From Escherichia phage LF82-1: a stretch of DNA of 64,000 bases. A program made the position numbers and the translations under genes. The stretch lies in sequence record PV648359; one strand, given 5' to 3'. The stretch's first letter is position 1; every line of letters begins with the position of its first letter. Below are positions 40,604 through 40,681 of the stretch, in pieces. Under the pieces are notes generated by a model. The model was not told the DNA's origin. It saw only the letters and a list, made by a program, of their open reading frames with translations, and did not search any database.

Positions 40604-40630
40604 TTAATTTCCTTTAGACGAGTTATTGTC
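40604..40630 (-). promoter_or_regulatory. candidate gene 43 translational operator (hairpin GAC-AAUAACUC-GUC next to RBS AAGGAA)
   Basis: Minus-strand RNA ...GACAAUAACUCGUCUAAAGGAAAUUAAAUG; 8-nt loop plus SD directly 5' of gp43 start. Confidence 0.4.
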
Positions 40631-40661
40631 TTTTGTTTGTTGATGAACTTATTATACTCCA

Positions 40662-40681
40662 AATGGGACCGAAGTCCCATT
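40662..40681 (-). terminator. tetraloop hairpin between regA and gene 43 (terminator or processing/regulatory structure)
   Basis: AATGGGAC-cgaa-GTCCCATT followed by TTGGAGTATAATAAG on minus strand. Confidence 0.35.

Follow-up and report, generated by a model that had tools for sequence, protein, structure and literature searches.

Between regA and gene 43 in an RB69-type phage: an operator hairpin, a putative middle promoter and a UUCG stem-loop

What governs the DNA polymerase gene of a T4-type phage within the short spacer that separates it from regA, and is the small hairpin directly before its ribosome-binding site (RBS) the operator through which such polymerases repress their own synthesis? 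These questions are raised by 78 nucleotides (nt; positions 40,604 to 40,681, read on the minus strand) of a 64,000-nt stretch of Escherichia phage LF82-1 (sequence record PV648359), the whole of which is called the window below. A first-pass annotation of this DNA had noticed a tetraloop hairpin, a TATAAT and a hairpin at the RBS between regA and the polymerase gene (gene 43), and all three are present on the minus strand where it had placed them. We put the probability that the last of them is the known gene 43 translational operator of phage RB69, in identity and in mechanism, and not a look-alike, at about 0.95. The interval as a whole is very probably the control region that lies between regA and gene 43 in an RB69-type phage, with three juxtaposed signals: a UUCG hairpin (hairpin 1), a promoter and the operator.

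The hairpin at the gene 43 ribosome-binding site

The elements around the start of gene 43 are as follows.

40631–40616, minus strand: hairpin AGAC-AAUAACUC-GUCU, read as the gene 43 translational operator, with a stem of 4 base pairs (bp) and an 8-nt loop (from folds, RB69 identity and covariation)
40627–40620, minus strand: operator loop AAUAACUC (DNA AATAACTC), from the sequence
40604–40615, minus strand: single-stranded 3′ part of the operator and translation initiation region, made up of an A, the Shine-Dalgarno (SD) sequence AAGGAA and the spacer AUUAA, from the sequence
40614–40609, minus strand: SD sequence AAGGAA, from the sequence
40603–40601, minus strand: ATG of gene 43, from the sequence
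37892–40603, minus strand: gene 43, family-B DNA polymerase of 903 amino acids (aa), an open reading frame (ORF) with the Pfam domains DNA_pol_B_exo1 and DNA_pol_B

A 201-nt query taken from the window across the spacer between regA and gene 43 matched phage RB69 (AY303349, 33307–33507) at 100% identity, as it did about 149 further records of the Mosigvirus type, in all of which the spacer is flanked by regA and a DNA polymerase gene. Residues 1–903 of the gene 43 product (gp43) give a full-length match (2089.6 bits) to the 903-residue chains 1clq, 1ig9 and 1waj of the PDB ('DNA polymerase'), which we take to be RB69 gp43; the polymerase of the isolate presumably lies a few residues off that of RB69. 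Its first 152 aa are 100% identical to those of Escherichia phage LF82-2, over 22 kb the window matches LF82-2 and its siblings at 100% identity, and the window corresponds to 64001–128000 of PV648360.1. Judged by these sequences, the phage is an RB69-type (RB69-like) Mosigvirus.

The gp43 of T4 is an autoregulatory translational repressor, and its operator consists of a hairpin upstream of the initiation codon together with a sequence that overlaps the RBS (Uzan & Miller 2010, PMC3014915). According to the same review, the operator hairpins of RB69 (16 nt) and T4 (18 nt) have a common loop, the UAAC loop core won the first experiment of systematic evolution of ligands by exponential enrichment (SELEX), the 3′ AC is important for binding, and the operator RNA of RB69 can be crosslinked to the palm domain of its gp43. 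The T4 and RB69 polymerases both bind RNA and act as autogenous repressors, with different RNA specificities and target sequences, and RNA and DNA binding by gp43 are mutually exclusive (Borjac-Natour et al. 2004, PMC535899). As the hairpin of the window has the 16 nt given in the literature and a sequence identical to that of RB69, it is almost certainly the known RB69 operator. Its loop is also identical to that of T4, with no departure from either phage at a conserved position, which bears out the earlier suggestion that this 8-nt-loop hairpin is the counterpart of the T4 gp43 operator. The operator features that can be computed, namely position, architecture, loop, conservation and RB69 identity, all agree with this assignment, and gp43 binding and repression have been published for the identical RB69 sequence.

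Both hairpins of the interval appear in the minimum-free-energy (MFE) and the centroid folds, so that the RNA folding proposed as a check came out in favour of the annotation, and the operator takes the form ((((........)))) in each. It had been described as a GAC/GUC hairpin ahead of AAGGAA and AUG; the hairpin stands, with a stem of four pairs in place of three. A single base (A40615) lies between its end and the SD sequence, and 12 nt separate it from the gene 43 AUG. The operator 20-mer folds with z = −5.2, and none of 200 shuffles was as good. Two observations weigh against the identification: the hairpin alone is weak (-3.2 kcal/mol), and the T4 and RB69 hairpins have nine top bases in common (the loop and the 3′ G) as opposed to the 'top 10' of the review (PMC3014915), since the 5′ closing base is not the same (T4 U, RB69 C).

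The 9-mer AATNACTCG is not rare as such, with five copies in the 64-kb window against 2.5 expected, and a 4-bp stem is easily found; an AT-rich intergenic region that holds a TATAAT and a short palindrome could thus resemble a control region by chance. The exact identity to an experimentally studied RB69 region speaks against this, as do the conservation of position, loop and pairing with compensatory changes across genera (see below) and the fact that the gene 43 copy of the 9-mer alone is placed in a hairpin. Chance resemblance is refuted by the comparative data, and we give it next to no weight. The other four copies were also considered as extra gp43 targets and ruled out, none of them being hairpin-forming.

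Neither a permissive Rfam search of the region nor a search of the whole 64-kb window at the gathering threshold returned anything relevant, with no family at threshold; the known T4-type regulatory RNAs of the region, the gene 43 operator included, have no Rfam models. A full-text literature search for the loop AAUAACUC gave only unrelated papers on small interfering RNAs and microRNAs among the matches listed.

In the mechanism that we propose, free gp43, off primer-template DNA, would bind the loop, the stem and the 3′ flank of the operator, as the literature describes for T4 and RB69. The operator would extend over 40631–40604, that is, over the hairpin and the adjoining single-stranded SD region. 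Because the hairpin ends one base before the SD sequence, the bound polymerase would occlude the RBS, exclude the 30S subunit and repress its own translation, as we infer for this isolate from sequence identity. RNA and DNA would compete for overlapping sites on gp43; since polymerase engaged on primer-template cannot bind RNA, translation would then resume, and the supply of polymerase would track the demand of replication.

The operator among relatives

Regions upstream of gp43 homologues were collected from GenBank phages by blastn and tblastn, and from IMG/VR with a pattern for the gp43 start that is blind to the operator. A homologous-locus search with the gp43 N-terminus returned close relatives only, and the diversity was supplied by the start-codon DNA pattern and tblastn. 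The 118-nt upstream segment of each relative was MFE-folded with no alignment used, and both hairpins were predicted independently in nearly every relative that has the loop motif. Fifteen distinct operators were retained, from the window (Mosigvirus), T4 (Tequatrovirus), Dhaka-, Gapriver-, Moon-, Marfa-, Gelderland-, Kanagawa-, Winkler-, Jiaoda- and Bragavirus, a Karamvirus-matching contig and three further metagenome contigs.

Among these 15 operators the loop reads AAU-N-ACUC, position 4 alone being variable (A, C or U), and the G on its 3′ side is invariant. The stems are variable yet paired (AGAC/GUCU, AGUC/GACU, AGCCU/GGGCU, AGACU/GGUCU, GACC/GGUC, GGUCU/GGACC, AGUCC/GGACU and UUCU/GGAA), with 4–5 bp, and the hairpin stands 1–16 nt from the SD sequence. 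When the operators were aligned by their loops, 85% of the cells were paired against 57% in shuffles (0/500 as high), and compensatory double changes were seen in four of the five stem pairs; sliding the 3′ arm by 1–3 columns in either direction, as a control, brought pairing down to 21–45%. An invariant loop on a covarying stem suggests that the hairpin is recognised by a protein in a sequence-specific manner. The real support for both hairpins is in fact comparative, since it lies in their independent prediction in many genera and in strong covariation.

These data bear on a second explanation, in which the hairpin would be a generic 5′-proximal stem-loop that protects gene 43 mRNA from RNase E or 5′-end-dependent decay and not a protein-specific operator. 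A transcription start a few nt before a hairpin is the geometry typical of 5′ stabiliser hairpins, and in T4 the middle promoter P43 starts transcription only 3–4 nt before the operator hairpin. However, mere structure would not account for a loop that is invariant at seven of its eight positions across more than 12 genera while the stem sequence is free, which points to recognition of the loop. In RB69-type phages, moreover, the hairpin would lie about 13 nt from the 5′ end, too far for 5′-end protection, and specific gp43 binding is documented (PMC3014915). We consequently regard a purely stabilising role as very unlikely, and retain the hairpin as an operator for gp43.

No AAUnACUC motif was found ahead of the gp43 gene of a Krischvirus (RB49 type), of a single Klebsiella phage or of T4-like phages from Acinetobacter and Aeromonas. 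This agrees with the report that some T4-related polymerases either do not autoregulate or use different loops, the RB49 operator loop having UAAA (PMC3014915). The Krischvirus in question, Enterobacteria phage GEC-3S, has no AAUnACUC hairpin at 316-347 of its segment, and a sigma-70 promoter (TTGACA-17-TATAAT) is annotated in its record. After this promoter a hairpin with 4 bp and an 8-nt loop can be drawn, CUUU-CGUAAGUG-AAGG, whose 3′ arm is the SD sequence itself; it may be the Krischvirus version of the gene 43 operator, with a different geometry.

Uzan and Miller also ask whether any natural phage carries the loop of the SELEX 'major variant', AGCAACCU (PMC3014915). A scan of IMG/VR for this octamer at 8–38 nt before a start of the gp43 type (ATGMAAGAATTYTA) returned a single hit (L065, 268-323), which was rejected as a chance match inside an unrelated ORF.

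The distance between the −10 element and the operator ranges from 5 to 25 nt among relatives. In one metagenome contig (L043, IMGVR_UViG_2974737508_000001, about 640-700) the conserved GGGGTATAAT stands only 5 nt before the operator loop, and in Erwinia phage Virsaitis27 (Winklervirus) it stands 9 nt before it. A start about 7 nt after the −10 element would in both cases fall inside the hairpin or its 5′ arm; the operator would then be incomplete on proximal transcripts, and autoregulation would be left to read-through transcripts alone in L043 and in Winklervirus-like relatives. The GUCC/GGAC pairing of L043 requires a 9-nt loop (U followed by AAUAACUC).

The TATAAT block and the UUCG hairpin

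Upstream of the operator, the interval and its border with regA hold the following elements.

40650–40632, minus strand: unstructured A/C-rich spacer AAGUUCAUCAACAAACAAA of 19 nt between the −10 element and the operator hairpin, holding the putative 5′ end of proximal transcripts, with no pairing in the centroid fold or when 40644–40601 is folded
40651–40660, minus strand: −10 block GGAGTATAAT (RNA GGAGUAUAAU), with TATAAT at 40656–40651 and GGAG upstream, putative homologue of the P43 −10 by alignment
40681–40662, minus strand: hairpin 1, AAUGGGAC-UUCG-GUCCCAUU (DNA AATGGGAC-TTCG-GTCCCATT), with an 8-bp stem, from fold and covariation
40687–40685, minus strand: regA stop codon TAA, from the sequence
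40685–41062, minus strand: regA, the upstream gene, an ORF for the translational repressor RegA (Pfam PF01818 Translat_reg, E = 4.9e-60; annotated regA in RB69)

The T4 middle promoter P43, which depends on MotA and AsiA, has its transcription start site (TSS) at 29933 (Hinton 2010, Table 1, PMC2988021), and the ATG of T4 gene 43 is at 29893. The TSS numbering was calibrated with all the listed minus-strand T4 middle promoters as printed relative to their starts, and the P43 start is 5 nt after the T4 TATAAT. The T4 block TTTGGAGTATAAT is identical in the window and occupies the homologous position, with the sequence of the UUCG hairpin in the −30 region. A block (G/T)(G/A)(A/G)GTATAAT is conserved in the operator-bearing relatives except KM16, which has GATAAA, and PM2, where no match was found. 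A sigma-70 promoter scan gave no −35 partner for the TATAAT, which leaves a −10 of the TAnnnT type without −35 consensus, as in T4 middle promoters; an ordinary early sigma-70 promoter was considered here and is unlikely, there being no −35. The TATAAT is thus probably the −10 of an RB69 homologue of P43. By the same alignment, GGAGTATAAT would start proximal transcripts about 12–15 nt 5′ of the operator hairpin, with a putative TSS near 40646–40644 and a leader of some 13 nt before the hairpin.

Hairpin 1 begins 3 nt after the regA stop codon. It is a G+C-rich stem-loop with a GGGAC-UUCG-GUCCC core, in which the UUCG is closed by a C-G pair, and folds at −11.7 kcal/mol (z = −4.9; 0/200 shuffles as good). 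Its covariation across the 15 relatives is stronger than that of the operator, since all eight pairs show compensatory changes and 96% of the cells are paired, a value reached by none of 500 shuffles. The loop is UUCG, UACG, UCCG or GAAA, that is, a UNCG or GNRA tetraloop, in most relatives, and the hairpin also occurs in distant T4-like phages of Acinetobacter and Aeromonas that lack the operator. Only AUUU follows the stem in the window, and part of it is inside the stem; the T4 homologue has UUAUUU, and a U-rich tract is seen in T4 and several genera. At the DNA level, hairpin 1 covers the −30 region of the putative P43.

A small extra ORF (about 72–77 aa, hypothetical) was observed between regA and gene 43 in the phages IME341, PEi20, KM16 and Konradin. 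In the first three, the hairpin–TATAAT–operator module follows the inserted ORF and stands next to gene 43, which suggests that the module travels with gene 43 and that hairpin 1 is not specifically a regA 3′ element. In Konradin, hairpin 1 and the TATAAT are present together with the extra ORF, and the operator motif is absent.

Several points count against a promoter and a terminator-like signal in this spacer. Middle promoters have the MotA consensus (a/t)(a/t)(a/t)TGCTTtA 11–13 nt from the −10 element; here only GGGACTTCG is found, 13 nt away, and its core is ACTT, not GCTT. A hidden Markov model (HMM) search predicted 32 middle promoters in RB69 and none of them in the regA–43 spacer (Nolan 2006). 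A terminator scan did not call hairpin 1 on the sense strand, and its tail, UGGAGUAU, falls short of the U-rich tract of an intrinsic terminator (at least five U in the 8 nt after the stem). In the TransTerm table of Nolan 2006 the sole 'regA' entry is that of RB43, with none for the regA–43 spacer of RB69. As to transcript mapping in RB69 (TSS or MotA dependence), none was found in the literature searched.

The failure of hairpin 1 to register as a sense-strand terminator favours a role as a barrier to 3′ exonucleases or as a leaky terminator, and we lean towards one of these for the 45-44-62-regA transcripts. On such transcripts the C(UUCG)G hairpin would close the upstream 45-44-62-regA unit at the RNA level, blocking 3′ exonucleases or terminating weakly. 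That it is a conventional Rho-independent terminator of the regA transcript, with gene 43 expressed from its own promoter only, appears rather unlikely. A stable GC-rich stem-loop directly after the regA stop would fit this idea, as would the U-rich tracts that follow the T4, Jiaodavirus, Bragavirus and Karamvirus versions. The short tail of the window and the negative scan argue against it, and the restriction of the TransTerm 'regA' entry to RB43, to the exclusion of RB69, does so as well. In T4, furthermore, everything that follows Pe35.3 (map units 35,662 to 27,197, with genes 45, 44/62 and 43 among the contents) is treated as one section with a high dependence on MotA (PMC6024815), a treatment that is compatible with read-through and not direct evidence for it.

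The scan also called a terminator on the plus strand at 40662-40681, where a near-perfect palindrome is followed by GCTTTAATTA. This candidate was rejected as no plus-strand gene ends there, the only plus-strand ORF at regA being a spurious antisense frame of that gene. The call looks like an artefact of the symmetry of the palindrome, not a bidirectional terminator.

A further explanation places hairpin 1 mainly at the DNA level: P43 would have its MotA box in the (A/G)CTTCG loop, with the RNA hairpin of secondary importance. The two phages differ at this core, T4 P43 having GCTT at 17 nt from the −10 and the window ACTT at 15 nt. The GCTT of GGGGCTTCGGCCCC in T4, counted from the mapped TSS, is in register with the same core in other T4 middle promoters, the 15 nt between ACTT and TATAAT in the window compare with 14 nt in two predicted RB69 middle promoters, and T4 P46 also has an ACTT core. 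Moreover, in Kp15882 and STP4-a, where the hairpin stands well away from the −10, there is a separate box, ACTTTA or TGCTAT, at 14 nt; lineages in which the hairpin has drifted from the −10 may have gained a separate MotA-like box. On the other side, hairpin 1 covaries as an RNA or as a palindrome in all lineages, including those whose UACG, GAAA or GUUCGC loops leave them without a suitably spaced (A/G)CTT (Karamvirus, L030, Winklervirus), and it is found in the operator-less Acinetobacter and Aeromonas phages. The T4 spacing, counted from TATAAT, is 2 nt above the consensus range, the match to the 9-nt MotA consensus is poor, the lineages that do fit are related by descent, and the HMM search missed the site (Nolan 2006). 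A predominantly DNA-level role is therefore doubtful. We propose just as tentatively that the 20-bp palindrome of hairpin 1 could double as the MotA-binding −30 element of P43 and as an RNA 3′-end or stability signal for the regA transcript.

Returning to the favoured reading, in which hairpin 1 acts on the upstream transcripts, the interval had been presented as one structured leader of gene 43. Its elements are real, and the single leader probably has to be given up: the TATAAT aligns with the −10 of P43, and the UUCG hairpin is probably upstream of the proximal start. The latter would consequently be in the gene 43 leader on read-through transcripts only, and it is not part of the operator. 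In place of a single continuous leader, the spacer probably holds three distinct elements: a hairpin that resembles a terminator, a promoter and an operator.

Neighbouring genes and known counterparts

Downstream of gene 43, the minus strand of the window encodes a 211-aa SIS-domain protein (37216–37851), whose counterpart in RB69, ORF055c, bears the annotation 'similar to GutQ', and, at 35349–37034, a protein of 561 aa whose N-terminal part is a nucleotidyl-transferase domain. The place that the two occupy (35349–37851), right after gene 43, is taken in T4 by imm.1 and imm. The hydroxymethyl-cytosine of RB69 is, we assume, modified with arabinose instead of glucose, and a sugar-phosphate isomerase together with a nucleoside-triphosphate transferase after gene 43 would fit a pathway for a nucleotide-sugar (arabinose) donor.

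With its operator, gp43 is a textbook example of a replication enzyme that has a second function as a repressor recognising a specific RNA sequence. The recovery of the operator here only confirms that a known small regulatory RNA can be recovered from raw sequence. The survey lists more natural variants of the operator than the reviews consulted do, with loops AAU(A/C/U)ACUC on covarying stems of 4–5 bp, and because the operator has no Rfam family, these data could seed a covariance model. The overlap of a MotA box with the UUCG hairpin is the only mildly new point; if true, one 20-bp palindrome would serve both an RNA signal of the upstream regA and an activator site of the downstream gene 43, a small testable idea on how signals are packed in T4-type intercistronic regions.

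The gene 43 operator of the window is already known and not new. Compared with that of RB69 (100% identity over 201 nt), it has the same 16-nt hairpin and the same loop AAUAACUC adjoining the SD sequence, without any difference in the RNA element. The RB69 operator was reportedly characterised by Wang, Pavlov and Karam (1997, in JBC, the Journal of Biological Chemistry) and by Petrov and Karam (2002, in NAR, Nucleic Acids Research), and the 1997 abstract is said to contrast a T4 gp43 that recognises only its own operator with an RB69 gp43 that binds both.

The T4 gene 43 operator resembles that of the window in its position, in its loop AAUAACUC, in the G 3′ of the loop and in the order of hairpin and SD sequence, and there too gp43 binds and blocks initiation. 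They differ in the stem, which has 5 bp in T4 (AGCCU/GGGCU, closed by U·G) and 4 bp in the window (AGAC/GUCU, closed by C-G), in the gap between hairpin and SD sequence (8 nt in T4 against 1 nt) and in the distance from the −10 to the loop (13 nt in T4 against 23 nt). The T4 operator was reportedly described by Andrake et al. in 1988 and Tuerk et al. in 1990, and is said to have been the first SELEX target (Tuerk and Gold, 1990).

Hairpin 1 likewise has counterparts in the extra-stable C(UUCG)G hairpins of T4 intercistronic regions, from which it does not differ in kind, being C-UUCG-G on a G+C-rich stem. These hairpins were reportedly described by Tuerk et al. in 1988 in PNAS (Proceedings of the National Academy of Sciences).

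A looser parallel is offered by the gene 32 operator of T4 and RB69, where a replication protein also represses its own mRNA through an RNA element 5′ of the RBS, and where RNA and DNA also compete for the protein. While the gene 32 operator consists of a pseudoknot followed by a long unstructured A/U-rich tract to which the protein binds cooperatively (PMC3014915), that of gene 43 in the window is a single small hairpin with a sequence-specific loop.

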